Shown here in pieces: positions 1,263 to 35,933 of a DNA stretch of 40,825 bases. Numbering within the stretch: the first letter of the stretch is position 1; each line of letters opens with the position of its first letter. Both the position numbers and the translations under genes were made by a program. The notes under the pieces were generated by a model. That model was not told the DNA's origin, ran no database searches, and saw nothing but the letters and a program-made list of their open reading frames with translations. The stretch comes from Escherichia phage vB_EcoS_fKuEco01: the sequence record MT711525.1; one strand, 5' to 3'.

Positions 1263-2756
1263 ATGGTTTCCGCAAACATTAACGCAGGGCAAGGGCAGAA
1301 CGTTAAAACCCGCCACCGCCAGTACGAAGAGTATTTCCCTAAGTGGCAGAAGGTGCGACATGCGCTTTCTGGCGACCTGACATCGTATCTACGTGACGTC
1401 AGTAAGAACGAGCCGGACCCGGTTTACGGTCGCCAGCGTCAGGCTGAATACGAAGCGGGGGCAATTTGCTACAACTTCACCAAGCGAACGCTTTCAGGCA
1501 TGGTCGGCAGCGTAATGCGCAAAGACCCCGAGATGATTATTCCGTCTCAGATGGAATACCTGACCACTAACTGTGACGGGTCGGGCGTTGGCCTGTGGCA
1601 GCACGCACAGGATACTCTGTATGAGATTGATGCTGTTGGTCGCGGTGGCTTGCTGGTTGACGCCCCCGCGGTAGAAGTAGCTACCATGGCAGAGCAAAAC
1701 GAGGGTTTACTAAATCCAACAATCGCTTTCTACACCGCAGAGAATATCATCAACTGGCGTCTCCAGCGCGTCGGGTCTGTTAATCGTGTGGTTATGGTTG
1801 TATTGCGTGAGGAATACGAGTACACCGATGGCGCGGATGAGTTCAGCCCCAACTACGGCGAGCAATACCGCGTCCTTGATATTTTCGAAGGCCAGTATCG
1901 CCAGCGTCTGTACCGCTTTAACCAGAAAGGTGCACTGATGGAAGGTGGCTATATCGAAATATTCCCGAAACTCGGTAATATTCCGGTCGGGGTGATTCCG
2001 TTCACGTTCATCGGCGCGGGAAATAACGACTCAACCCCTGACGATGCACCTTTGCTGCCGTTGGCTGAACTTAATATCGGGCACTTCCGCAACAGCGCGG
2101 ACAATGAGGAGTCCAGCTTCGTCGTAGGCCAGCCTACTCTGTTCATCGCCCCCGGTGAGAACATGAGCATGGGACAATGGAAAGAAGCCAACCCTCACGG
2201 AGTGCGTATGGGGTCACGTTCTGGCCATAACATCGGTTACGGCGGCAATGCGTTTCTGGTCCAGGCCAGTGAGAACAACCTAGCCAAGCAGAACATGTTG
2301 GATAAAGAGAACCAGGCAATCCAGATTGGTGCACAGCTTATTACCCCGACGCAGCAAATCACCGCGGAATCGGCACGCCTGCAACGCGGCGCTGATACGT
2401 CCGTTATGGCAACAATCGCACGTAACGTAAGCATGGCGTATACCGATGCGTTGCGCTGGGTCGCGGGTATGCTTGGGATTAGCGACAGCACTGAAATTGA
2501 GTTCAAACTGAACATGGAGTTCTTCCTGCAACCAATGACCGCTCAGGACCGCGCGCAGTGGATGGCGGATATTAACGCGGGCCTGTTACCGGCTACCGCT
2601 TACTATGCTGCGTTGCGTAAGGCGGGGGTAACTGACTGGACAGACGAGGACATTCAGAACGCTATCGAGGATGCGCCTCTGCCATTAGGTGCTGTTGCTC
2701 AGGTGGCTGGGGAGATTCCGCAGTCGGCGCAGCAAAAAGACCCCACCCAGCAGTAA
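1263..2756 (+). CDS. portal protein
   Basis: 497-aa ORF directly after terL with AAGAGG ribosome-binding site; size and position typical of portal. Confidence 0.75.
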   Translation: MVSANINAGQGQNVKTRHRQYEEYFPKWQKVRHALSGDLTSYLRDVSKNEPDPVYGRQRQAEYEAGAICYNFTKRTLSGMVGSVMRKDPEMIIPSQMEYLTTNCDGSGVGLWQHAQDTLYEIDAVGRGGLLVDAPAVEVATMAEQNEGLLNPTIAFYTAENIINWRLQRVGSVNRVVMVVLREEYEYTDGADEFSPNYGEQYRVLDIFEGQYRQRLYRFNQKGALMEGGYIEIFPKLGNIPVGVIPFTFIGAGNNDSTPDDAPLLPLAELNIGHFRNSADNEESSFVVGQPTLFIAPGENMSMGQWKEANPHGVRMGSRSGHNIGYGGNAFLVQASENNLAKQNMLDKENQAIQIGAQLITPTQQITAESARLQRGADTSVMATIARNVSMAYTDALRWVAGMLGISDSTEIEFKLNMEFFLQPMTAQDRAQWMADINAGLLPATAYYAALRKAGVTDWTDEDIQNAIEDAPLPLGAVAQVAGEIPQSAQQKDPTQQ

Positions 2757-2766
2757 GTTCACATAT

Positions 2767-2788
2767 AGCCCCGAAAGGGGCTTTCTTA
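2767..2788 (+). terminator. GC-rich hairpin (GCCCC-GAAA-GGGGC) with U-rich tail after portal
   Basis: agccccgaaaggggct followed by ttcttat; same hairpin sequence recurs at 4335-4356. Confidence 0.5.
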
Positions 2789-2792
2789 TAGT

Positions 2793-3869
2793 ATGCTATT
2801 AACTTTAGCGCCACAGGGTTTATCTATGAGCTTACTTACATCACTAATCAGCCACCAGATATGGCTGCAACGCACCGCATCCGGTGAGGTGAAAGACCTC
2901 GCGCCGTTCATTAAGGAGATGCGGGACGAAATCAAACGGCAGGTGCTGCTATTCGGCGACGACGGTCGCAGCACTGCGCGACTGAATAAACTGTTACGTG
3001 ACCTTGAAGAAGTACTGACAGGACTTACTGGTGACTGGCAAACAAAGCTGGCAGAAGACCTCAAGGAACTGGCGGTGTATGAAGCTGAGTGGAACGTAAA
3101 GACCCTGTCCGCCAACGTAGATGCGGAATTTGTTACGCCCACCGCCGAACAGGTGTGGGCCGCTGCTGAGTTTCAGCCATTATCATTGAGTGGCAAGCCA
3201 GTTGATTTCACTAAACTGATGTCAGGTTGGGGTGAAACGGAAGTAGCACGTCTTGTAACCGGCGTTAAGATGGGCTTTGTACAAGGTCAAACAACACGGC
3301 AGATTGTTAAGAATGTAGTAGGCGCCGGTGGGCTGGCTGACATCTCTGAGCGTAACGCCGCTACCGTCATCCGCACCGCGCTGTCTCACGTGTCCAACGA
3401 AGCCCGTAACGAGACGTACCGCCAGAACGACGACATCATCGAGAAGTACGAGTGGGTGTCAACGCTTGACAGCCGCACCAGTACGATTTGCAGGGTAAGA
3501 GACGGGATGACGTGGGAAATTGGTAAGGGGCCGATGCCCCCTGCCCATCCGAACTGCCGGTCGTGCACGGCTCCGGTAATCAGTTCCGAGTTCGACTTCC
3601 TCGATAAAGGCGCAAAACGCGCGGCTAAAGGCGCGGAAGGTGGCACTCAGGTAAGCGTAGACACCACTTACTACGAGTTCCTTAAACAACAACCGGCGTG
3701 GTTTCAGGACCAGGCGCTCGGCCCGGTGCGAGGTAAGATTTTCCGTAACAGCGGTATACCGCCGGAAGAGTTTCGCGTAATATCTGTAGATGGTTTCGGG
3801 AATCCGCTCACGCTTAAGCAGATGGCGGAACTCGATAAACGTGTTGCTGATTATCTGAAAGGGGAATAA
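2793..3869 (+). CDS. head morphogenesis protein (Mu gpF / SPP1 gp7-like)
   Basis: 358-aa ORF; C-terminal AHPNCRSCT motif typical of the Mu-F family; alternative in-frame start at 2826. Confidence 0.7.
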   Translation: MLLTLAPQGLSMSLLTSLISHQIWLQRTASGEVKDLAPFIKEMRDEIKRQVLLFGDDGRSTARLNKLLRDLEEVLTGLTGDWQTKLAEDLKELAVYEAEWNVKTLSANVDAEFVTPTAEQVWAAAEFQPLSLSGKPVDFTKLMSGWGETEVARLVTGVKMGFVQGQTTRQIVKNVVGAGGLADISERNAATVIRTALSHVSNEARNETYRQNDDIIEKYEWVSTLDSRTSTICRVRDGMTWEIGKGPMPPAHPNCRSCTAPVISSEFDFLDKGAKRAAKGAEGGTQVSVDTTYYEFLKQQPAWFQDQALGPVRGKIFRNSGIPPEEFRVISVDGFGNPLTLKQMAELDKRVADYLKGE

Positions 3870-4330
3870 TGATGGGCTTTTTCAAAGTAACTGACGTACC
3901 GTCTCGTCGCGTAGTCCAGTACGCCCGCGTGTCTGGCTCTGGCGAGAACGTGGTGTTTATTGAAGACGAAAGTGTACTCGGAACACCAGTGGACGATATG
4001 CCGTTTGCGGACAAGACCGGTATTGCGCTGCCAGCGGCAGGTATGCTTTATGAGATTCAGTACCTGGCGGATGCTGGTGATGTGTATTTCTCCGTACAAC
4101 CGCAGGACGCTGAACTGGCAGACGGCAGCGCAAATATCGCTGTCGAAGTTAAGGCGGGCAAAGCACCATATGCGCTGACCTGGTACAAAGACGGGAAGGA
4201 AGTGGTAAACGCCCCGGAAGAGGCTCTGTCTCTGACGGTTAACGCAGTTGGTGAATACTTCGTTAAAGTCACTGATGCCGACGGTATAGAGGCCGTAAGT
4301 AAAGCAGCGAAGGTTACTAAGCCAGAATAA
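3869..4330 (+). CDS. hypothetical virion-associated protein, possible Ig-like domain
   Basis: 153-aa ORF, start overlaps upstream stop (TAATG); beta-rich C-terminal segment. Confidence 0.45.
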   Translation: MMGFFKVTDVPSRRVVQYARVSGSGENVVFIEDESVLGTPVDDMPFADKTGIALPAAGMLYEIQYLADAGDVYFSVQPQDAELADGSANIAVEVKAGKAPYALTWYKDGKEVVNAPEEALSLTVNAVGEYFVKVTDADGIEAVSKAAKVTKPE

Positions 4331-4655: not shown

Positions 4656-4672
4656 ATCGAGAAAGGGGAAAC

Positions 4673-5059
4673 ATGAATCTTAAAGCAACTGTCGTAGCGG
4701 GAGCATGTTTCATCATCCTGGCTTACGCACACGGCATCTACCAGTATCGCAGCGGCTGGAACGGAGGCCGGGCGAATCTCGTTTCGCAGCAACAGCAGAA
4801 AGCACAGGCTGAGTTAGCTAAGAAAACACAACGGCAGCAGCAGGATGAATCGAAGGCCGCCGCCGCTGATAACGAAGGCAAGACGAAATCAGAGGTAATC
4901 ACCCGTGAAGTCGTTAAGTACATTAAAACGCCTGGCCGCAGCGTGTGCACTTTTGACCCTGAGCGCGTGCAGCTCAAGTCCCGCGCCGTCGCAAACGCCA
5001 ATTCCATCCCCGGATACGACGATGATGCAGCCGCCGTGCAAACTGGCACTGCCAAGTAA
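4673..5059 (+). CDS. Rz: i-spanin (Rz-like)
   Basis: 128 aa; N-terminal transmembrane helix then a charged, Gln/Ala-rich periplasmic domain; overlaps Rz1 in the +1 frame. Confidence 0.6.
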   Translation: MNLKATVVAGACFIILAYAHGIYQYRSGWNGGRANLVSQQQQKAQAELAKKTQRQQQDESKAAAADNEGKTKSEVITREVVKYIKTPGRSVCTFDPERVQLKSRAVANANSIPGYDDDAAAVQTGTAK

Positions 5060-5168
5060 CGACGCGGACGAGGATTTAGCTATTGACGTCCAGAACGCAG
5101 AATGTGTACGGCAACTGAGACTTAAAGTGTTCATGTTGCAGGATTACGTGAGGAATATTCTGGAATAG
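4905..5168 (+). CDS. Rz1: o-spanin (Rz1-like lipoprotein)
   Basis: 87 aa; signal peptide with lipobox LTLSAC; Pro-rich mature part; starts inside Rz in the +1 frame. Confidence 0.6.
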   Translation: MKSLSTLKRLAAACALLTLSACSSSPAPSQTPIPSPDTTMMQPPCKLALPSNDADEDLAIDVQNAECVRQLRLKVFMLQDYVRNILE

Positions 5169-5247
5169 TTGCCTTGTATGTTGGAATAATTTATTCTTGA
5201 CATGTAAATCCGGGTGGCCCGGATTCCAACGTCCAGGGGACCTACTG

Positions 5248-5874
5248 ATGAGCGAAGAAGTGAAAGACGAAACTATCGAACAACAAGAGACTAAGACCAC
5301 GTTTACCAAAGAAGAAGTTGACGCGCTGGTATCCGGTCTTAAAGCTAACAACGAGAAACTCTTGTCTGAAAAGAAAGCTGCCGCCGCTGCCGCGAAAGAA
5401 GCCGCAGATGCGAAGCTGAAAGCCGAACAGGAACGCGCAAAACAGAACGGCGAACTTGAGGCATTCGAGAAAACGTTGCGCAGTCAGTATGAGCCAGTAC
5501 TCGCCGAGAAAGACGGTAAGATTAGCAAAATGGCTGAGCGTATCCTCGGCGCAGAACGTAAATCAGTTATCAGCCAGTTGTCTGGCATGTTGATTGATGA
5601 GAGCGCAGCGGATATTATCGCTATGATGGTCAAGACCGAATTTGACGGCGATGACGTTGTGACCAAGTTCACAGGTGCGGACGGTAATGTCATCACCACC
5701 GACGCAGAGCAATTTAAAAAGTATCTGCGTGAGCACAAAGCATTCTCACATCTGATTAAAGCAGATGCAGCAACCGGCGGCGGGGCTTCCGGTAACAAAA
5801 ATTCTACTGGCGGGGCCGGTGGTACGGACGTAATTCAACAAAAACTTAACGCCAAATACGGCAAACGAGGATAA
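5248..5874 (+). CDS. scaffolding protein
   Basis: acidic, Ala/Lys/Glu-rich coiled-coil protein directly upstream of major capsid gene; ATG at 5248 preceded by CAGGGGA; track ORF starts at TTG 5197. Confidence 0.6.
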   Translation: MSEEVKDETIEQQETKTTFTKEEVDALVSGLKANNEKLLSEKKAAAAAAKEAADAKLKAEQERAKQNGELEAFEKTLRSQYEPVLAEKDGKISKMAERILGAERKSVISQLSGMLIDESAADIIAMMVKTEFDGDDVVTKFTGADGNVITTDAEQFKKYLREHKAFSHLIKADAATGGGASGNKNSTGGAGGTDVIQQKLNAKYGKRG

Positions 5875-5880
5875 GAGATT

Positions 5881-6849
5881 ATGGCTCTGTCAGATATGAA
5901 GGTTTATAACGACGATATCGTCGGTACCACTATCGAACTGCTTGGTCAGAAAACTGACCAGTTTAACGCGGCCTCCGGTGGTGCAATTGTACTGTCTACT
6001 GCCTCATGGCGCGGTGATTTCTCCCGTGAGTCTTTCTTTAACCAGATTGCCTCCGCTAAACGCCGCGTTGACCGTTACGCCGCTATCGCGTCTCAGGCAG
6101 CTACCGCGCTGACTCAGGGCGAGCATGTAGGCGTTAAAGTCGCTGGCGGCTTCGGACCGGTACTGTTCGAGCCTGCGCAAATGACCTGGCTGAACGAAGA
6201 CCCGGCAAGCGCGATTCGTGCTATTTCCGAAGGCTTCTCTGACGCACTGTTAGCGGACCAGCTCAACACCGCTGTTGGTGCCGCCGTTGCCGCGGTATCG
6301 GGTCAGACTGCACTGGTTAACGATGTATCCGCGACCGCTGGCTTGTCCCTGAACGTGCTGAACAACAGCCACGCTAAATTCGGCGACCAGTCTCAGTTGT
6401 TGGTCACTGACATCATGACCGGTGCTGCTTATCACACGCTGGTAGATAAAGCGCTGACTAACGCAAACCAGCTGTTCGTTGCCGGTAACGTTATGGTTGT
6501 CGATGTTCTCGGCAAGCGTTACGTAATTTCCGACATCCCTGCGCTGTACGAAGCTGGCACCCCGAACAAGACTAAGGTTCTGTCCGTAGTTGCGAACGGC
6601 ATCATCGTTGATAATGCTTCTGACATTATCAGCAACATTGACACCAGCAACGGTAACACCCGCATCCAGACCACCTGGCAGGCGGACTACAGCTTCGGCC
6701 TGAAACTGAAAGGCTACAGCTGGGACGTTACCAACGGCGGTAAATCTCCGCTGGACGCAGAACTGTTCACCGCGACTAACTGGGACAAAGCTGTTGCCGA
6801 GAACAAGCACACCCTCGGTACTCTGGCAATCGCCGACGCAGACCTGTAA
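5881..6849 (+). CDS. major capsid protein
   Basis: 322-aa ORF after scaffold, followed by a strong terminator; position typical. Confidence 0.75.
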   Translation: MALSDMKVYNDDIVGTTIELLGQKTDQFNAASGGAIVLSTASWRGDFSRESFFNQIASAKRRVDRYAAIASQAATALTQGEHVGVKVAGGFGPVLFEPAQMTWLNEDPASAIRAISEGFSDALLADQLNTAVGAAVAAVSGQTALVNDVSATAGLSLNVLNNSHAKFGDQSQLLVTDIMTGAAYHTLVDKALTNANQLFVAGNVMVVDVLGKRYVISDIPALYEAGTPNKTKVLSVVANGIIVDNASDIISNIDTSNGNTRIQTTWQADYSFGLKLKGYSWDVTNGGKSPLDAELFTATNWDKAVAENKHTLGTLAIADADL

Positions 6850-8615: not shown

Positions 8616-9028
8616 TGGGCTACTTTGAGGACTTAACAAAAGCGTTCGATGTTCCGCTGGTAGCCTTCGGAACCGCCAACGGCATCAAGGTCGCGCTTGA
8701 AAACATCGACGCGCCGACGTCAACCGATACGCCATATCTGGCAAGTTACATGTTACTGGCGGATACCGAGCAAGCAGATTTGTTCTTCACGGAACAACGC
8801 GCGGGTGTTTATCAGGTCGACATTAACTACGCATCGGTGAAAGGTAGCGCGCCAATCAATAAAATGGCAGACTTACTTAACACGGCATTCAAAGCAGGTA
8901 AGTCATTTTCTCGTAACGACATCTGCGCCGAGGTTCAATCGGTTAGCCTGGGGCCGCTGATTGTAGAAAACGGATGGGCCAAACGACCATTGTCAATTAA
9001 CTTTATTGCATTCACCAAGAGGCTGTGA
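8612..9028 (+). CDS. hypothetical tail protein (possible tail terminator)
   Basis: 138-aa ORF immediately upstream of the major tail protein. Confidence 0.45.
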   Translation: MMGYFEDLTKAFDVPLVAFGTANGIKVALENIDAPTSTDTPYLASYMLLADTEQADLFFTEQRAGVYQVDINYASVKGSAPINKMADLLNTAFKAGKSFSRNDICAEVQSVSLGPLIVENGWAKRPLSINFIAFTKRL

Positions 9029-10197
9029 ATATGGCTACAACTCCTTTTAAGGGCGCGAATACTGCGCAATTCTATGTGGCAGAAACTACCCCTGGCGTAA
9101 CACCGACTAACCCGGTCTGGTCGCCATTGCGTAACACAGGTGGCGTTCCTGCCATTACCCGCGACACGCTGACCTCCAACGAACTGGACGGCAGCCGTGA
9201 AACTACGTCAATCCGCACCGGTAACAAGCAGGTTAGCGGAGAATACGCTATTGAGCTTAGCTCGAAAAGCCAGGACGACTGGCTGGCGGGAGCTTTAGGC
9301 TCTACATGGCAATCCGGTAGTTCTCTGACCGGGCTATCAATTACCGTCGCGCCTGCAGGCAAGACCTTTACCCGTGCCGAAGGTAGCTTTATTTCTGACG
9401 GCGTTGAAGTGGGCGACCTGATTGCGTTTACCGGCTTAACCGGTGACAACGCAAAACCGTTTATCGTAACTGCAGTAGAGGCGCGGGTAGTGACCGGGGC
9501 GGGTATCCAGCATACCCTGACCACAGAGACAGTAACTACCGCCGCTAAGACAGGGGATAAACTGGAAACGGGAGGCCAGTGCAAGACGTTCTCTATTCTC
9601 ACCTGGTACAAAGGCCAGTGCGGCGGGACTGACGCGTACACACTAACCAAAGGCGTGGAAGTTTCTGGTTTTACCATCGAACAGGCTGTTAACGCTATGG
9701 TAACTGGCAGCTTCCCGTTCATCGGTCGCAGTCAGGAGATTCTCACCACGCAGCCGTCTGGTTCTGATTTCTCCTCTGTTACGTTTGGTGACGAGCCATT
9801 CTCCTCGGTCGATGTTTCTGTGTTCGACGGTTCTACGCCGTTGCGTTGCGACAGCCTGACCATCACCAACGACAACAGCGCGTCCGCACAGTTCGAACTC
9901 GGCAACACTAACGTAGCGTTTGTGGAGCGTAGCCGAGCAGCTAACACCTTCTCCATCTCCGGTAAGCTGTACGACATGGCGATGATTCAGAAGTTTATCA
10001 ACGAGCAGCAGGTGGAGATTAACTCTATTCTGGCTGGGGTAAACGGGGCTATGTCTTTCAGTTTGAAACGTGCAGAACTTACGGCGGTTACACCTGAGAT
10101 TGGAGGACCTGAGTCAATCACTCAGTCTATTGAAGGCCAGGCTACTGGCAACCAGTACCAGTCGTCTATTGTTATTCAGCGTATCACATACGCATAA
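9025..10197 (+). CDS. major tail protein
   Basis: 390-aa Thr/Ser/Gly-rich beta-type protein upstream of chaperone pair and tape measure. Confidence 0.6.
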   Translation: MNMATTPFKGANTAQFYVAETTPGVTPTNPVWSPLRNTGGVPAITRDTLTSNELDGSRETTSIRTGNKQVSGEYAIELSSKSQDDWLAGALGSTWQSGSSLTGLSITVAPAGKTFTRAEGSFISDGVEVGDLIAFTGLTGDNAKPFIVTAVEARVVTGAGIQHTLTTETVTTAAKTGDKLETGGQCKTFSILTWYKGQCGGTDAYTLTKGVEVSGFTIEQAVNAMVTGSFPFIGRSQEILTTQPSGSDFSSVTFGDEPFSSVDVSVFDGSTPLRCDSLTITNDNSASAQFELGNTNVAFVERSRAANTFSISGKLYDMAMIQKFINEQQVEINSILAGVNGAMSFSLKRAELTAVTPEIGGPESITQSIEGQATGNQYQSSIVIQRITYA

Positions 10198-10201
10198 AAC
10201 T

Positions 10202-10224
10202 AAGGCCCCGTTTGGGGCCTTTTT
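10202..10224. terminator. bidirectional terminator hairpin AAGGCCCC-GTTT-GGGGCCTT
   Basis: 8-bp GC stem with T-runs on both strands at a convergent gene junction; exact reverse complement recurs at 22728-22747. Confidence 0.7.
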
Positions 10225-10225
10225 C

Positions 10226-10780
10226 TTACAAACCTAATCTTAAAGCAATGCCTATAGCGTTCGATTTAACGTAACCCGGTATGATGTAGGTGTCATAATC
10301 TTTTACACCATCAATATCGTACAGGTAACCGCGGCTGTCCCCTTCAAACGTATGGCCGTCTCTGTGCAAGCGGACGATTCTCACATCATGCCCCGCGGCA
10401 ACGATAGGGGCTACTTCGCTGGCGAACCCGCCATCAGACACCACAAAAACTTCGTCGCCGTCGGGCAAGTTTCCGGCAAGATACTTACCGAAATAATCAT
10501 CACCGAATACCGGTTTAATGAATTGCTCGGAAATGGCAATCATGAACTGACGCCGAGACAACCCGTTAAGGAAACCCTCTGGCTTTTCTTTCCGCGCCCG
10601 GTCGTCGTAGCCGTCGAGAAACTCGCGGTAAGCATCCTGGCCTAACGCAGCCATAGCAATATTGAACATCGGATTCTTGAAACTGGCGACACCCTTCGCA
10701 AAGCCCATTTCTACCAGCGCCCTAGCAAGTGTGTCTTTCCCGCAGCCCGCAGGACCATTAAGAATAATTACCTTAGCCAT
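10226..10780 (-). CDS. P-loop kinase, dNMP-kinase-like
   Basis: 184 aa; N-terminal Walker A GPAGCGKDT resembling T4 gp1-type nucleotide kinases. Confidence 0.65.
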   Translation of the reverse strand: MAKVIILNGPAGCGKDTLARALVEMGFAKGVASFKNPMFNIAMAALGQDAYREFLDGYDDRARKEKPEGFLNGLSRRQFMIAISEQFIKPVFGDDYFGKYLAGNLPDGDEVFVVSDGGFASEVAPIVAAGHDVRIVRLHRDGHTFEGDSRGYLYDIDGVKDYDTYIIPGYVKSNAIGIALRLGL

Positions 10781-11265
10781 TATTTATCACTCCCATGTGG
10801 TTTTAAGTGTGTAGAGTTCCCGTTACAGTCGTATTCAGTAACTGCGTGAGTGGTTATGCCGAGTTCGCGGAAATGCTTTATTACCGCTGGAGAGTCGTCG
10901 AATGCACACAAGATTCTCTCCGGCCCAATAGCACGCAACACCTCTTCTTTAATTACGATGTCTTTTCTGTTGTCGTGTTTGCTGCGCATGATTAACTGAT
11001 AAAATTCGACGCGGTGGCGCTGCAACCACATTCTGGTTTCTTTTTCCGCGTCATCACTACGGCCTGTTAAGATAATAACGGCATAGCGACGATTAAGGGC
11101 GTTACACAGTTCGATGTTATCTTTAATGGGTGCATCGTCTTTGCACGCCATGTTAAATGGTTTCCACGCCCAGGTTTCGCCGTAGTTATCTTTCGGCAGC
11201 AGGTGTAAACGATGAGTACCATCTGCCAATGTCCCGTCTAAATCGAAAATCACAATATCTTTCAT
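10780..11265 (-). CDS. HAD-family phosphatase resembling the T4 Pnkp 3'-phosphatase domain
   Basis: 161 aa; N-terminal DLDGT motif and a C-terminal segment matching the T4 polynucleotide kinase/phosphatase domain as recalled. Confidence 0.65.
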   Translation of the reverse strand: MKDIVIFDLDGTLADGTHRLHLLPKDNYGETWAWKPFNMACKDDAPIKDNIELCNALNRRYAVIILTGRSDDAEKETRMWLQRHRVEFYQLIMRSKHDNRKDIVIKEEVLRAIGPERILCAFDDSPAVIKHFRELGITTHAVTEYDCNGNSTHLKPHGSDK

Positions 11266-12392
11266 CCAAGCATCTCCGGTGAAATAGTTAAACGTGCGAC
11301 CTCGCCATATTCGGCGCTATAAGTAATTACGTTTGCACTGCGGCCCGACATCCACCCACCGCGGGAGGCATATGCATCTTTAGCCGCGAGAGTGCGGTGT
11401 TGCTCAACAATCATGTTACGGCTTTCTACAATCTTTTGGTGGTGCAGGTGACCCACGTGGGCGTAGCTGTAAACACTCTCGCCGAACGCTTTGCGGAACT
11501 TGGCAATCATAACCGGTTCGATAGCGTCGAATCGTGCTTTATGCCCATGATGGAAGAACAGCGTCGTTTTGCCGTGTTGCACCATCTTGTAAACATCCGG
11601 CGACGTATCGACGAACACACGCGGTTCATTGTCGTACAGCGTACTAAACATCTCAGCTAACCAAATCATTCCGCTTTCGTCGTGGTTACCTTGCACGATA
11701 AGCAAGCGAACATTTTTATGTTTAACGAGAGCCATATCAATGACACGGCGGACCATACGAATCATGTAGCGTACAAGTTTCTGATAGCGGGCGTCAGCGT
11801 CAAGAACATGACCACTGGCAGGTGTAACGGCGTCCAGACTATCGAAATGCGCAAGGTCGCCCAGCAGATTAATAACTCCTGTTCCGGCATCCGGTGCTTT
11901 CTGGAACGCTGCGTCGAACCAGCGGGAGAACAGGTCTTCCGCAATCTTCATGTCCCAGTCGTCGCCGCTCTCGTCAGCCCAGGCCAGCATACCGAGATGG
12001 AAATCAGACACAGTGTAAAGGTTGAGTAGCTTGTCGTCTCGTTTGGCGCGAACGGCTTTAACAGGTGCAACTGGTGTAATCTCCGACTTCATGCCTTCGA
12101 TTACGGCTTTCATCAATTCAACCTGACGTTCGGCATCGGTGTCGGTCTTAACCCATTGCAACTTGGTGTTGCCAAACTCATCCACCAGTGATGATGTTCC
12201 TTTAATCTTGTAGCCGTCCGGTACAAGGTAACTAACGTCACGCCCGTGGCCTACACCTTTCTTAGCCAGCTTCGCTTTACGTATACGAATAACGCGGTCG
12301 GAGATGCCGTATTTACGGGCGATGTCGATATTCTTCATACCGGCGTTCAATTCTTCCTGTAACTGTTCGTCGGTTATTTTCTTCCTGGCCAT
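11262..12392 (-). CDS. HTH domain fused to calcineurin-like metallophosphoesterase (SbcD/Mre11-like motifs)
   Basis: 376 aa; motifs DFHLG, GDLAHFD, GNHDE, HHGH, GHLHH; basic N-terminal helix-turn-helix-like region. Confidence 0.7.
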   Translation of the reverse strand: MARKKITDEQLQEELNAGMKNIDIARKYGISDRVIRIRKAKLAKKGVGHGRDVSYLVPDGYKIKGTSSLVDEFGNTKLQWVKTDTDAERQVELMKAVIEGMKSEITPVAPVKAVRAKRDDKLLNLYTVSDFHLGMLAWADESGDDWDMKIAEDLFSRWFDAAFQKAPDAGTGVINLLGDLAHFDSLDAVTPASGHVLDADARYQKLVRYMIRMVRRVIDMALVKHKNVRLLIVQGNHDESGMIWLAEMFSTLYDNEPRVFVDTSPDVYKMVQHGKTTLFFHHGHKARFDAIEPVMIAKFRKAFGESVYSYAHVGHLHHQKIVESRNMIVEQHRTLAAKDAYASRGGWMSGRSANVITYSAEYGEVARLTISPEMLG

Positions 12393-12429
12393 GCTTATTC
12401 CTCGTGTTTAGGATTTGTCCTATACTAGC

Positions 12430-12636
12430 TCACTTCTCTTTGACATTCGAGTTGCACGCCCAGATTAAGATAAATACCCACGGCAGCAGAACCCAACCAA
12501 GAAACAGATTAGCCATGAATATCGCTAACTTCGCTTTATGGCTACGGAAGTACGCAACCAGGAAAGGCGCGAAATAAGCTAGCAGTGCAAACAGAATTAA
12601 GGAAACTGGTAAACTTGACATTTTAAACCCCTTCAT
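12430..12636 (-). CDS. small two-TM membrane protein, resembles superinfection-immunity (Imm-type) proteins
   Basis: 68 aa (63 from second ATG at 12621); hydrophobic helices with LGWxxxPW-ILIWA-like motif; first gene after the island promoter. Confidence 0.5.
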   Translation of the reverse strand: MKGFKMSSLPVSLILFALLAYFAPFLVAYFRSHKAKLAIFMANLFLGWVLLPWVFILIWACNSNVKEK

Positions 12637-12651
12637 TGTTGGTGTAAGTGA

Positions 12652-12680
12652 ATAGTACCCTATTATATTGGGGTGTGCAA
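12652..12680 (-). promoter_or_regulatory. early-type promoter TTGCACAC-17-TACTATTCACTTA driving the minus-strand island
   Basis: reverse complement of 12645-12690 matches the promoter units at 34582-34610 and 35875-35903. Confidence 0.55.
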
Positions 12681-12788
12681 GTAATGTGATAGAATAAGTT
12701 TGCGCCTAGTGTCGCACACGAAAAGCGGGTGGTTCCCGTCTGGCGCATTTATCGTTAACCTGTAACCTCTTAACCAAAGGATTAAAGA

Positions 12789-13205
12789 ATGAAACTTTCT
12801 GATTTTTATTTCGAAGAGAAAGCACTGGTAGGCAAGAAGATGCCCATTCTGCTGCCAAACGGCGAAGACTCCGGTGAATGGCTTAACGTTGTAAGTCCCG
12901 ATGCGGATGTCGCCGTTAAAGCGGGGCGTGCTTTCATTATTGCGTACCGTCGCGGGTTGGCGCGTTTCGAAGAACTGGAAAAAGCCGCCAAAGAATCCGG
13001 CGACTATACTGAATATAACCTGGCTATTAACGAACTGGCGGAAGACCTCAACCGGCAACTCGCGGCAGAAGTCGTAAACGGCTGGAGCTTTGATGAGCCT
13101 TTCTCTAAAGAAGCATTTAACAAATTGCTGGACCAGTTCAAGGCATTAGGCACACAGGTAGCAGCGTTCCATAACGCTGAGCGCAAAGCATTACAGGAAA
13201 AGTAG
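12789..13205 (+). CDS. tail assembly chaperone (G-like)
   Basis: 138-aa acidic protein immediately upstream of tape measure; ends at a shifty AAG-TAG context. Confidence 0.6.
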   Translation: MKLSDFYFEEKALVGKKMPILLPNGEDSGEWLNVVSPDADVAVKAGRAFIIAYRRGLARFEELEKAAKESGDYTEYNLAINELAEDLNRQLAAEVVNGWSFDEPFSKEAFNKLLDQFKALGTQVAAFHNAERKALQEK

Positions 13206-24310: not shown

Positions 24311-25127
24311 TTACGGCCCCCATAAACGCCTTTATAAATTCGGCGGCTACTTGCGGGACGATGGCATTGCCGTAACCGCGCAATCGTCCCACTCTTGCGG
24401 GTATCCCATTAGCCAGCGGGAATGCGCCGGGTTCAACCGGCCGGAACTTTCCATCACGGCATCCGAGCCAGTCAGCATCTGACCAGAAGCCGTGGTGCGG
24501 GTTGGTTGACTCGCTTTCAATCCCTGCTCTGTTGAGTAGTCCAGCCTGTCGAATGTTCTGTCCCTCCCGCCCGTGCGAATCACTGTCTCTCCGCTCCCTC
24601 TGAAGTCGTTCGCACACGGTGTTGGCCAGTTGCTGCGCTCCGAAGAACAATCGATTCCTTTTGTGCGGTGCGCCGACGCTACAAGCTGGGAGTACGGCAA
24701 ACCCGACGGCGTAGTCTTCTCTTTCCAGGTGAGTTTGTAAATCGCACATCCACGATTTTGCAATTGCTGCCGCAACCTGCTCCCCAAAGATAACTGGAGG
24801 GCGGCACTCGCTGATGAGGTCGAGGAACACAGGTGCGAGGTGTCTCTGGTCGAACTGTCCGAGTTGCTTTCCTGCCGTGCTAAACGGTTGGCAAGGCGGG
24901 CTTCCCGTCCAGAGAGGCGCATCTTCCGGAACTCCCGCAAGTCTGAGCGCGAGAGGCCAGCCGCCGATACCAGCGAAAAAATGACACTGGGTGAACCCGT
25001 CAAGGTCTTCTGGTCTAACTTCGGTAATGCTTCTTTCATCTACAACTCCAAAAGGTATGTGACCCTGTTTTATTAATTCACGCAGCCACGCGGCTGCGCC
25101 TTTATCCCATTCGTTGTAATAGTTCAT
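24303..25127 (-). CDS. DNA (cytosine-5) methyltransferase
   Basis: 274 aa; motif I FAGIGGW, motif [12 protein letters not shown]-terminal GNAIVPQV. Confidence 0.75.
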
Positions 25128-25345: not shown

Positions 25346-25645
25346 TTAACTATAATAGCTCGCTATTAGGTCGTCAACCTGTTTAAACGAACCAACGATA
25401 AAAACATTTGCACCGCGTTTACGCATCCGCTCGTGCTCACGTATCTGGTGCGGGTCTGGCTTCGTGTTTTCGTCTTTCTTAACCTCGACGAACCATATGA
25501 CGCCGCCAGGGAGAATTACCAGCAGGTCGGGAGCGCCGGAGCGCCCCTCGTAGGAGAGCTTACGAACGAGGCCGCCGATGGCCTCGAATCGCTCTTTTGC
25601 GTATTTCTGTATTTTGCCTTCCGGTGTCATGAGCGCGGAATCCAA
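25346..25645 (-). CDS. VRR-NUC domain nuclease
   Basis: PD-(D/E)XK-like PDLLVIL ... FVEVKKDE arrangement; likely true start ATG at 25630. Confidence 0.65.
   Translation of the reverse strand: MDSALMTPEGKIQKYAKERFEAIGGLVRKLSYEGRSGAPDLLVILPGGVIWFVEVKKDENTKPDPHQIREHERMRKRGANVFIVGSFKQVDDLIASYYS
25349..25377 (-). promoter_or_regulatory. sigma70 promoter TTGACG-17-TATAGT
   Basis: near-consensus hexamers; lies within the 3' end of the VRR-NUC gene. Confidence 0.5.
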
Positions 25646-28902: not shown

Positions 28903-28931
28903 ACTATAATAGCTAACTATTCAGGTGTCAA
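28903..28931 (-). promoter_or_regulatory. sigma70 promoter TTGACA-17-TATAGT with GAATAGTTAGCTAT in spacer
   Basis: consensus -35 and near-consensus -10 read on the minus strand. Confidence 0.6.
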
Positions 28932-31000: not shown

Positions 31001-31030
31001 ACTATAATAGCTAACTATTCATGTTGTCAA
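31001..31030 (-). promoter_or_regulatory. sigma70 promoter TTGACA-18-TATAGT with GAATAGTTAGCTAT in spacer
   Basis: consensus hexamers; divergent from the HTH gene at 31095. Confidence 0.6.
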
Positions 31031-31094: not shown

Positions 31095-31310
31095 ATGCAA
31101 CCATCTGAACTAGGTATCCGTGTAGAGCAACGCCGTAAAGAACTCGGTATCTCCCAGCGCCATCTGGCTGTCCTGGCCGGTGTTTCCCAAGGCGCGATTA
31201 ACCAGCTGGCACTTGGGGTAACTCAGGACGTCCGCCCAGCGACGCTGTTTAAACTGGCGGAAGTGCTGCAAGTAGACGCCAAGTGGCTGGCGTTGGGTGA
31301 AGGGGCTTAA
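31095..31310 (+). CDS. XRE-family helix-turn-helix transcriptional regulator (Cro/CI-like)
   Basis: 71 aa; ISQRHLAVLAGVSQGAINQL HTH; AGGAG RBS; transcribed divergently from the replication genes. Confidence 0.7.
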   Translation: MQPSELGIRVEQRRKELGISQRHLAVLAGVSQGAINQLALGVTQDVRPATLFKLAEVLQVDAKWLALGEGA

Positions 31311-34530: not shown

Positions 34531-34581
34531 GCTCGCTACCCCCTTAAACGAAAGAATCACAACGGCAACGTAACTAATCTC

Positions 34582-34610
34582 TTGCACACCCCAACATAAT
34601 AGGATACTAT
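34582..34610 (+). promoter_or_regulatory. early-type promoter TTGCAC-17-TACTAT with conserved leader
   Basis: near-identical unit at 35875-35903 and, on the minus strand, 12652-12680. Confidence 0.55.
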
Positions 34611-34644
34611 TCACTTATCGAAACGAGACAGAGGAGTGAGGGTT

Positions 34645-35035: not shown

Positions 35036-35214
35036 TGCGAATCCGTATAACTGACCGCAGGCTTATCCGTATAACTGACCGCAGGCTTATAGATTTCTGT
35101 ATCTCGGTAGGTGATGTTTTTCCGGCGTTCAGCATCAACCATTATGGTTTTATGATTGAGTACAAAGGGTCGTTATTGTTCGTGTATCGGGATGAATGTG
35201 AGGTTCTGGTATGA
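35035..35214 (+). CDS. hypothetical protein containing an in-frame 24-bp tandem duplication
   Basis: ATG overlaps upstream stop (TAATG); repeat encodes IRITDRRL twice. Confidence 0.35.
   Translation: MRIRITDRRLIRITDRRLIDFCISVGDVFPAFSINHYGFMIEYKGSLLFVYRDECEVLV
35043..35090. repeat. exact 24-bp tandem duplication (CCGTATAACTGACCGCAGGCTTAT x2)
   Basis: two perfect adjacent copies read from the sequence. Confidence 0.9.
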
Positions 35215-35867: not shown

Positions 35868-35874
35868 AATTTAC

Positions 35875-35903
35875 TTGCACACTGGGATAGAATAGGCTAC
35901 TAT
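35875..35903 (+). promoter_or_regulatory. early-type promoter TTGCAC-17-TACTAT with conserved leader
   Basis: matches the unit at 34582-34610 including the AACGAGAGGAG leader. Confidence 0.55.
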
Positions 35904-35933
35904 TCATTTACACAAACGAGAGGAGAGACAGAG

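Follow-up and report, generated by a model that had tools for sequence, protein, structure and literature searches.

We analysed the 40,825-nucleotide (nt) sequence of Escherichia phage vB_EcoS_fKuEco01 (MT711525.1), a stretch that we refer to as the window. Its tail module contains an island of four genes on the minus strand, which encode a predicted superinfection immunity protein (Imm), a metallophosphoesterase (MPE) with a helix-turn-helix (HTH) motif, a HAD phosphatase and a P-loop kinase. We tentatively propose that the three enzymes serve DNA breakdown and nucleotide supply. An initial annotation, made from the sequence alone, had placed four opposite-strand genes between the major tail protein and the tail chaperones and had bounded them by a bidirectional terminator. 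Both statements hold, with the open reading frames (ORFs; lengths in amino acids, aa) and the hairpin at the following positions:

12789-13205, plus strand: tail assembly chaperone gene, flanking the island and followed by the tape-measure gene
12645-12681, minus strand: island promoter of class A, with the -35 element TTGCAC at 12680-12675, a 17-nt spacer and the -10 element TACTAT at 12657-12652
12430-12636, minus strand: Imm ORF as called mechanically (68 aa); 12430-12621 from the likely start (63 aa)
11262-12392, minus strand: HTH-MPE ORF, 376 aa, predicted binuclear metallophosphoesterase with an HTH, probably a nuclease
10780-11265, minus strand: HAD ORF, 161 aa, stand-alone HAD phosphatase of the Pnkp 3'-phosphatase type
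10226-10780, minus strand: kinase ORF, 184 aa, predicted deoxynucleoside monophosphate (dNMP) kinase of the T4 gp1 type
10202-10221, both strands: bidirectional intrinsic terminator hairpin, AAGGCCCC-GTTT-GGGGCCTT, serving the convergent tail-tube gene and the island
9025-10197, plus strand: tail-tube gene, flanking the island

The phage belongs to the genus Kagunavirus of the subfamily Guernseyvirinae: the 2.9 kb around the island share 99.8% identity with Escherichia phage vB_EcoS_fTaEco03 (MT711528) and 96-98% with phages K1G and K1ind1-3, which are all members of this genus. Over the whole island, the DNA identity to Kagunavirus genomes (vB_EcoS_fTaEco03, K1G, K1ind1-3 and Golestan) is 96-99.8%. 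The annotation of MT711528, which has HHpred support, was used as a near-identical reference for the gene layout. In this record, the terminase, head and tail genes are located on the plus strand, as is a separate block of small genes that is followed by the lysis genes. The replication block is on the minus strand and contains genes for a helicase, methylases, a DNA polymerase, a Cas4-like nuclease and a primase-helicase. The island genes are labelled as a putative deoxynucleotide kinase, a putative polynucleotide kinase/phosphatase, a metallophosphoesterase and a superinfection immunity protein.

The three enzyme genes are tightly packed. The MPE and HAD genes share an ATGA overlap, and the HAD and kinase genes share a TAATG overlap. 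Because the start and stop codons overlap, the three genes are predicted to be translationally coupled. The hairpin at 10202-10221 begins 4 nt past each of the two convergent stop codons, those of the tail-tube and kinase genes. It has an 8-bp stem with 6 G-C pairs, is accompanied by a T-run on both strands and has a terminator-like score in both directions. The two strands fold with energies of -15.5 and -17.5 kcal/mol, corresponding to z-scores of -3.2 and -3.8 relative to shuffled sequences. A further, small hairpin at 12695-12745, ahead of the island promoter, was also considered, and was rejected as not significant (z -0.68). The island is best explained as one transcription unit, which starts at the promoter at 12645-12681, continues through the Imm, HTH-MPE, HAD and kinase genes and ends at the terminator at 10202-10221.

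The initial annotation had described the kinase as a P-loop enzyme with a loop similar to that of T4 gp1. Our results agree with that description. The protein matches phrog_139 (3.8e-46), and T4 gp1, with its sequence from NC_000866, hits the same region of this PHROG at 1.8e-65. The P-loop GPAGCGKDT aligns to GVKRSGKDT of gp1, and the residues G14, K15, D16 and T17 are invariant in 34 homologues. The AlphaFold (AF2) model has a pLDDT of 93, and its best Foldseek match in the PDB is 1DEK, the T4 dNMP kinase (E 1.7e-5, TMq 0.65). T4 Pnkp chains are not found among the top 50 fold matches. In HMMER and hhalign comparisons, the relationship is visible in the P-loop alone. HMMER searches against Pfam, NCBIfam and PDB returned P-loop matches only; the PDB search, run with the single sequence and with a 9-sequence profile, did not find 1DEK, and the NCBIfam search yielded nothing useful. 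Similarly, hhalign of the 9-sequence profile with T4 gp1 aligned only the P-loop region, with 53% probability. The kinase half of phrog_505 (positions 1-160) gave no match to the protein, and PF13671 was reached only at E 0.016 over the P-loop.

Based on the shared PHROG and the fold search, we assign the protein to the gp1 family of nucleotide (dNMP) kinases and not to the polynucleotide kinases. It has the PHROG, the GKDT P-loop and the best structural match in common with T4 gp1 (1DEK), but the two are only 19% identical, and the window protein is shorter (184 versus 241 aa). T4 gene 1 (positions 2650-3375 of the T4 locus, L031) is likewise located among morphogenesis genes (57A, 3, 2 and 4), a parallel to the position of the kinase within the tail module.

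The HAD phosphatase had been likened to the 3'-phosphatase domain of T4 Pnkp, and this likeness is borne out. The protein covers 140 of 143 positions of the PF25109 (HAD_PNKP) profile with a score of 72.1 bits (cut-off 27.6, E 6.7e-20). It matches phrog_415 at 8e-67, as well as the phosphatase half of the Pnkp-type PHROG 505. The best PDB match is Pnkp1 (4xrp, 1.7e-6), followed by T4 Pnkp (5uj0 and 1ltq). The motifs FDLDGT (with DLDGT as motif I), LTGRS, NRKDIVIKEE and FDDS align with both proteins. Thus the HAD resembles the 3'-phosphatase domains of T4 Pnkp (PseT) and Capnocytophaga Pnkp1 in the signatures DxDGT, (S/T)GR, RKDxVxKEE and DD. Unlike these enzymes, it stands alone: there is no fused or adjacent Pnk-type kinase domain and no phage RNA ligase partner. 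The 'polynucleotide kinase' label that the gene carries in databases overstates the encoded function and is misleading, because the HAD is paired with a gp1-like nucleotide kinase rather than with a Pnk-like one.

The third enzyme is a metallophosphoesterase for which all five signature motifs (DxH, GD, GNH(D/E), H and GHxH) had been noted. Across 52 diverse homologues, residues D130, H132, G178, D179, N236, H237, H282, G314 and H317 show no variation, and H315 is conserved in at least 90% of the sequences. The score of the protein is below the Pfam gathering cut-off for calcineurin-like metallophosphoesterases. The homologues were collected in a representative search; a word-indexed search returned only sequences that were at least 97% identical. 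The model of the protein (pLDDT 92) contains a tri-helical HTH at residues 8-44, a beta-hairpin and helix at 61-104 and the MPE domain at 119-376. The N-terminal HTH is predicted with confidence, and weak matches to GerE/LuxR-type profiles agree with it.

Foldseek searches with the MPE model are led by Mre11, the DP1 subunit of PolD and Rv0805, a cyclic-nucleotide phosphodiesterase. Searches of PDB sequences with the MPE profile reach Mre11 and SbcD at only E ~0.1. In its predicted structure, the MPE looks most like the nucleases PolD-DP1, SbcD and Mre11, and not like the healing modules of Pnkp, which are of the lambda-phosphatase type. Because a DNA-binding HTH is fused to a nuclease-like MPE, the protein is probably a DNA nuclease, although the match is too distant to fix the substrate. 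Its identity to Mre11/SbcD and DP1 is 11-18%, and the N-terminal HTH and beta-hairpin replace the capping or OB domains of these enzymes. It also differs from them in its genomic context, with no partner gene for Rad50/SbcC or a polymerase and no SMC-like ORF in the window.

The MPE family is large, with 4622 clusters at 50% identity (E up to 0.001). In phage records it occurs in Guernseyvirinae, Dhillonvirus, Drexlerviridae and phages of Vibrio, Campylobacter, Rhizobium and Flavobacterium. A literature search combining Drexlerviridae and metallophosphoesterase found nothing. In several loci, an HNH endonuclease gene adjoins the HTH-MPE gene: endY in Tls (3326-3997 of locus L003), and further genes in a Jerseyvirus (4671-5171 of L006) and in a Vibrio phage (5241-5750 of L005). 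Free-standing HNH genes next to HTH-MPE in three unrelated phage lineages suggest that this conserved gene is a target of homing endonucleases.

The first gene of the island encodes a small protein with two hydrophobic stretches readable in the sequence, which correspond to two transmembrane helices. The initial annotation had compared it to superinfection-immunity proteins, and profile searches bear this out: the protein matches PF14373 with 46.3 bits (3.8e-12, cut-off 27.9) and phrog_1039 at 1e-22. The start position required correction. The ATG at 12621 is preceded by a GAAGGGG Shine-Dalgarno sequence 6 nt upstream and gives a leader that matches in length those of the other two class A promoter copies described below. 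We therefore consider this start (63 aa) likely, over the ATG at 12636. A 41-codon ORF (12623-12748, minus strand), listed as the coding sequence TE3_021 in MT711528, straddles the island promoter; it is unlikely to be a gene. The window protein resembles T4 Imm in its PF14373 match, its small size and its two transmembrane helices. It differs in having 63 aa and in being replaceable, since an unrelated, putatively secreted protein of 108 aa substitutes for it in some Kagunaviruses.

Imm is absent from 5 of the 16 Kagunavirus contigs that were retrieved with the kinase. In one of these five contigs (IMGVR_UViG_3300045988_039442, 2997-3323 of locus L020), the 108-aa protein occupies the Imm position behind the same promoter and has a signal-peptide-like N-terminus; no Pfam or PADLOC match was found for it. 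This leading position in the island looks like an exchangeable slot, which may serve exclusion functions.

The hexamers TTGCAC-17-TACTAT of the island promoter (12652-12680, minus strand) are embedded in a 37-nt motif, CTTGCACAC...TACTATTCAnTTA. As the initial annotation had recognised from its resemblance to promoters at 34582 and 35875, the sequence is repeated. The 37-nt motif has exactly three copies in the window, at 12645-12681 on the minus strand and at 34581-34617 and 35874-35910 on the plus strand, and none in shuffled sequence. The motif includes a palindrome, AATAGnnnnCTATT, which overlaps the class A promoter of the island at 12651-12664. This palindrome is found at six sites in the window, compared with 0.05 expected, and each of them lies within a sigma-70-like promoter of a non-structural operon. 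Three sites are in class A promoters (TTGCAC-17-TACTAT), which serve the island and two operons of small plus-strand genes. The minus-strand replication block contains the other three, all in class B promoters (TTGAC[AG]-17/18-TATAGT) on that strand. The elements are:

12651-12664, 25354-25367, 28908-28921, 31006-31019, 34598-34611 and 35891-35904: sites of the palindrome AATAGnnnnCTATT
34581-34617, plus strand: class A copy 2, promoter and putative operator motif preceding small plus-strand genes
35874-35910, plus strand: class A copy 3, promoter and putative operator motif of a plus-strand small-gene operon
25354-25367, minus strand: class B promoter with palindrome, TTGACG-17-TATAGT, in the minus-strand replication gene block
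28908-28921, minus strand: class B promoter with palindrome, TTGACA-17-TATAGT, upstream of the DUF2815 and DNA polymerase genes
31006-31019, minus strand: class B promoter with palindrome, TTGACA-18-TATAGT (11 of 12 matches), ~75 nt from a divergent XRE repressor gene
31095-31310, plus strand: XRE/Cro-type HTH gene, 71 aa, matching PF01381 (HTH_3) at 9.7e-12 and labelled as a DicA-like repressor in MT711528

In the sister genus Jerseyvirus, the island promoter keeps the palindrome, but shifted by 3 nt relative to the hexamers. This argues that the palindrome is a putative operator and not merely a part of the promoter. The 71-aa XRE protein is the best candidate for binding it, since its gene is located ~75 nt from the site at 31006-31019. 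The HTH of the MPE was also considered as the binder of the promoter palindrome and was set aside: no supporting evidence was found for it, and the operator-adjacent XRE repressor is the simpler candidate. Together, the six sites and the XRE gene look like the operator set of a phage-wide switch. Repeated promoters have already been listed for phage Golestan (PMC7203180); a literature search on Kagunavirus promoters was otherwise unproductive.

In temporal RNA-seq of the Kagunavirus K1B4, the Imm gene falls into a group with the methylases and the DNA polymerase that does not include the head and tail genes (PMC12645636). This grouping, and the palindrome that the island has in common with the replication promoters, support co-regulation of the island with non-structural genes. 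The initial annotation had gone further and considered the island to be probably expressed early, unlike its surroundings. The data support the co-regulation; the early timing is an inference from the promoter type.

The arrangement of the enzyme genes was compared across phages. The MPE, HAD and kinase genes are present in all 16 Kagunavirus contigs retrieved with the kinase. In Jerseyviruses, the same site has Imm and MPE but no HAD or kinase; behind the MPE come an HNH endonuclease, a small ORF and an Ant-like protein. Salmonella phage horsemountain, for example, carries the HNH endonuclease, a 76-aa ORF and an Ant-like anti-repressor at 4671-6195 of locus L006, between the tail-tube and chaperone genes. 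Webervirus KP1801 has MPE, HAD and kinase in the same order (gp37-35), directly before the lysis genes. The same trio is found in Pantoea phage AAS23 as gp38-40, which its authors filed as nucleotide-metabolism enzymes (PMC8004638). In these representatives of Drexlerviridae and relatives, the three proteins are orthologues of the island enzymes (41-60% identity), and their genes keep the order and share one strand. They differ in their location, which is a DNA-metabolism block upstream of the lysis genes and not the tail module, and in having no Imm gene ahead of them.

A further version is found in the Autographiviridae phage Ahp1, where a different MPE (phrog_221, with Pfam Metallophos just above the cut-off) is followed by a phrog_415 HAD and the kinase. 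These genes are located among genes for an exonuclease and endonuclease VII. The 324-aa gene upstream of the kinase in Ahp1 was tested as an orthologue of the window MPE and rejected by BLASTP and hhalign, which leaves it in the phrog_221 MPE family. A 324-aa gene in the same position in a Seunavirus was likewise rejected, as it shows no similarity to the window MPE in BLASTP or hhalign.

We then surveyed 64 viral contigs from outside Kagunavirus that carry a homologue of the kinase. An HAD gene is found upstream of the kinase, on the same strand and within 2.2 kb, in 50 of them (78%). The distance between HAD and kinase is within 160 nt in 13 contigs, and an MPE gene lies directly upstream of the HAD in 8. 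On the strength of this survey and the comparative loci, the HAD-kinase pair is the stable core of the set, which the MPE joins often, but not always.

We interpret the island as an accessory cassette for DNA breakdown and nucleotide-precursor supply, combined with a putative superinfection-exclusion gene. This is the best explanation of the data, although we hold it tentatively and put it just short of probable. It builds on the gene structure, the family and fold assignments, the conservation of catalytic residues, the operon coupling, the recurrent synteny and the shared operator. The substrates, the order of the steps, the host chromosome as the source of DNA, the time at which the island is expressed and the protein that regulates it are proposed on this basis. 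In such a scheme, Imm, as a small member of the T4 Imm family, would sit in the inner membrane and exclude the DNA of superinfecting phages. The HTH would tether a Mn2+/binuclear nuclease of the Mre11/SbcD/PolD-DP1 type to DNA, allowing its digestion to 5'-dNMPs. The Pnkp-type HAD would act on DNA ends or on nucleoside 3',5'-bisphosphates and strip off their 3'-phosphates, which, if left in place, would block digestion or reuse. The gp1-type kinase would convert dNMPs to dNDPs, from which the host nucleoside diphosphate kinase would form dNTPs for phage replication. As a member of the non-structural regulon, the island would supply these accessory functions to the phage.

Several observations weigh against this interpretation. 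The known E. coli DNases leave 3'-OH ends, which makes the need for a 3'-phosphatase in DNA salvage questionable. The fold matches of the MPE are generic (TM 0.41-0.47), and Rv0805 is the fifth among them. The three enzymes are not obligatorily linked, because Dhillonvirus and Vibrio phages carry the MPE alone, Tls has all three genes but in dispersed positions, with the MPE far from the HAD and kinase, and in Jerseyviruses an HNH endonuclease and an Ant-like protein stand in place of the HAD and kinase. The Imm class of K1B4 has its peak at >100 min in an unsynchronised infection and is not early (PMC12645636). Finally, gp38 of Pantoea phage AAS23, the MPE orthologue, was detected by LC-MS/MS in purified virions (PMC8004638). 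This hints at a role at or before DNA entry and, by analogy, the window MPE may be virion-associated; a literature search on virion proteomics was unproductive.

The variation between loci could also mean that the island does not function as a unit. Its position, flanked by the tail-tube and chaperone genes, would then be an accessory ('moron') slot, in which Imm, MPE, HAD and kinase are each independent and adjacent only through shared horizontal transfer and shared regulation. The varying cargo of the site, including the Imm-MPE-HNH-small ORF-Ant order of Jerseyviruses, the exchange of Imm for the 108-aa secreted protein in some Kagunaviruses, the solitary MPE and the dispersed trio of Tls all fit such a slot, and we regard it as a serious rival, if an unlikely one. 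It does not account for the overlapping start and stop codons across all three enzyme genes, for a gene order common to three or more phage families, in one case with an MPE that is not orthologous, or for the same-strand upstream HAD that is retained in 78% of the distant kinase loci. The initial annotation had preferred an end-healing set directed against host defence nucleases. The HAD would clear 3'-phosphates or 2',3'-cyclic phosphates, the kinase would act on 5'-OH ends, the MPE would trim, and the host LigA or RtcB would seal the tRNA or DNA. The Pnkp type of the HAD, whose best solved relative is Pnkp1 of the bacterial RNA-repair complex, followed by T4 Pnkp, is in line with this proposal. 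So is the adjacency or proximity of the HAD and kinase genes in most relatives, which resembles a split Pnkp, and MPE modules do act as healing phosphoesterases in Clostridium thermocellum Pnkp. However, the kinase groups with T4 gp1 by profile and fold and reaches PF13671 only at the level of the P-loop, and the nearest relatives of the MPE are DP1, SbcD and Mre11, not lambda-phosphatase-like enzymes. The system also lacks a polynucleotide 5'-kinase and a phage ligase, both of which are marks of healing-and-sealing systems (T4 Pnkp with Rnl1; bacterial Pnkp/Hen1). That no ligase is visible had been pointed out at the outset, and it holds: none is annotated in the 99.8% identical, HHpred-annotated MT711528, and the window has no ORF of 180 aa or more that is without another assignment. 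Furthermore, a 3'-phosphatase would destroy the substrate of RtcB, Jerseyviruses have neither HAD nor kinase, and Guernseyvirinae are reported to be sensitive to the tRNA-cleaving nuclease Ec2ApeA. In view of the kinase identity, the nuclease-like MPE, the missing ligase, the Jerseyvirus gap and the Ec2ApeA sensitivity, end-healing is weakened to the point where we find it improbable, and it gives way as the preferred function.

Nucleotide-pool manipulation, which had been offered as the alternative, fares better in part. A role in nucleotide and DNA metabolism fits the data better than end-healing, but its extension to modified bases does not: the Kagunaviruses of the BASEL collection are highly sensitive to restriction-modification systems (PMC11990801), and synthesis of modified bases is therefore unlikely. 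The enzymes could instead counter host defences by nucleotide chemistry, with the MPE and/or HAD destroying immune signals (cyclic or 3'-phosphorylated oligonucleotides, dinucleotide activators) and the kinase restoring dNTP pools in the face of defences that deplete nucleotides. The presence of Rv0805 among the top fold matches of the MPE, a promoter type in common with other non-structural genes and the patchy distribution of these accessory genes are compatible with such a role. The HTH fused to the MPE suggests a DNA substrate instead, and PADLOC found no matches to defence-related models. In BASEL phenotyping, Kagunaviruses are not notably resistant to defences (PMC11990801), and Ec2ApeA, a nuclease activated by deoxydinucleotides, restricts them. 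We consider a counter-defence role very improbable. There is also a slim chance that HTH-MPE, Pnkp-type HAD and gp1-type kinase form a dedicated phage pathway that is as yet uncharacterised. It might be a ligase-less form of end processing, in which the gp1-like kinase is recruited to polynucleotide 5'-OH ends and host enzymes seal, or a nuclease/phosphatase set, virion-delivered or early, that acts against host nucleases or nucleotide-based immune signals.

Two further features of the window were observed outside the island. A perfect tandem duplication of a 24-nt unit, ATCCGTATAACTGACCGCAGGCTT, with 2.1 copies is located at 35041-35090 on the plus strand, within the block of small plus-strand genes. 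In the replication block, the C-5 cytosine methylase gene (PF00145; 24303-25127, minus strand) contains a nested ORF on the same strand in a different frame (24347-25039, minus strand, 230 aa), which has no Pfam match and is labelled as an Mte8-like methyltransferase in MT711528.

GenBank records and at least two papers (PMC8004638, PMC7203180) already describe the genes and their predicted functions. Deposited Kagunavirus records contain the same sequence with names only; no function, operator palindrome or cross-family synteny is reported in them. Our analysis adds that the kinase is predicted to be gp1-like and not Pnk-like, that the trio recurs across phage families, and that a six-site putative operator ties the island to the replication regulon. 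The importance of these findings is modest. They indicate that small siphophages carry a portable three-gene set with a predicted nuclease, a 3'-phosphatase and a dNMP kinase, and that the Pnkp-type phosphatases of these phages are paired with nucleotide kinases rather than with polynucleotide kinases. The HTH-MPE family is a large one, and the BASEL Kagunaviruses make it tractable. The six-site operator may provide a simple model of how the transcription of non-structural genes is kept apart from that of structural genes in a virulent 41-kb phage.

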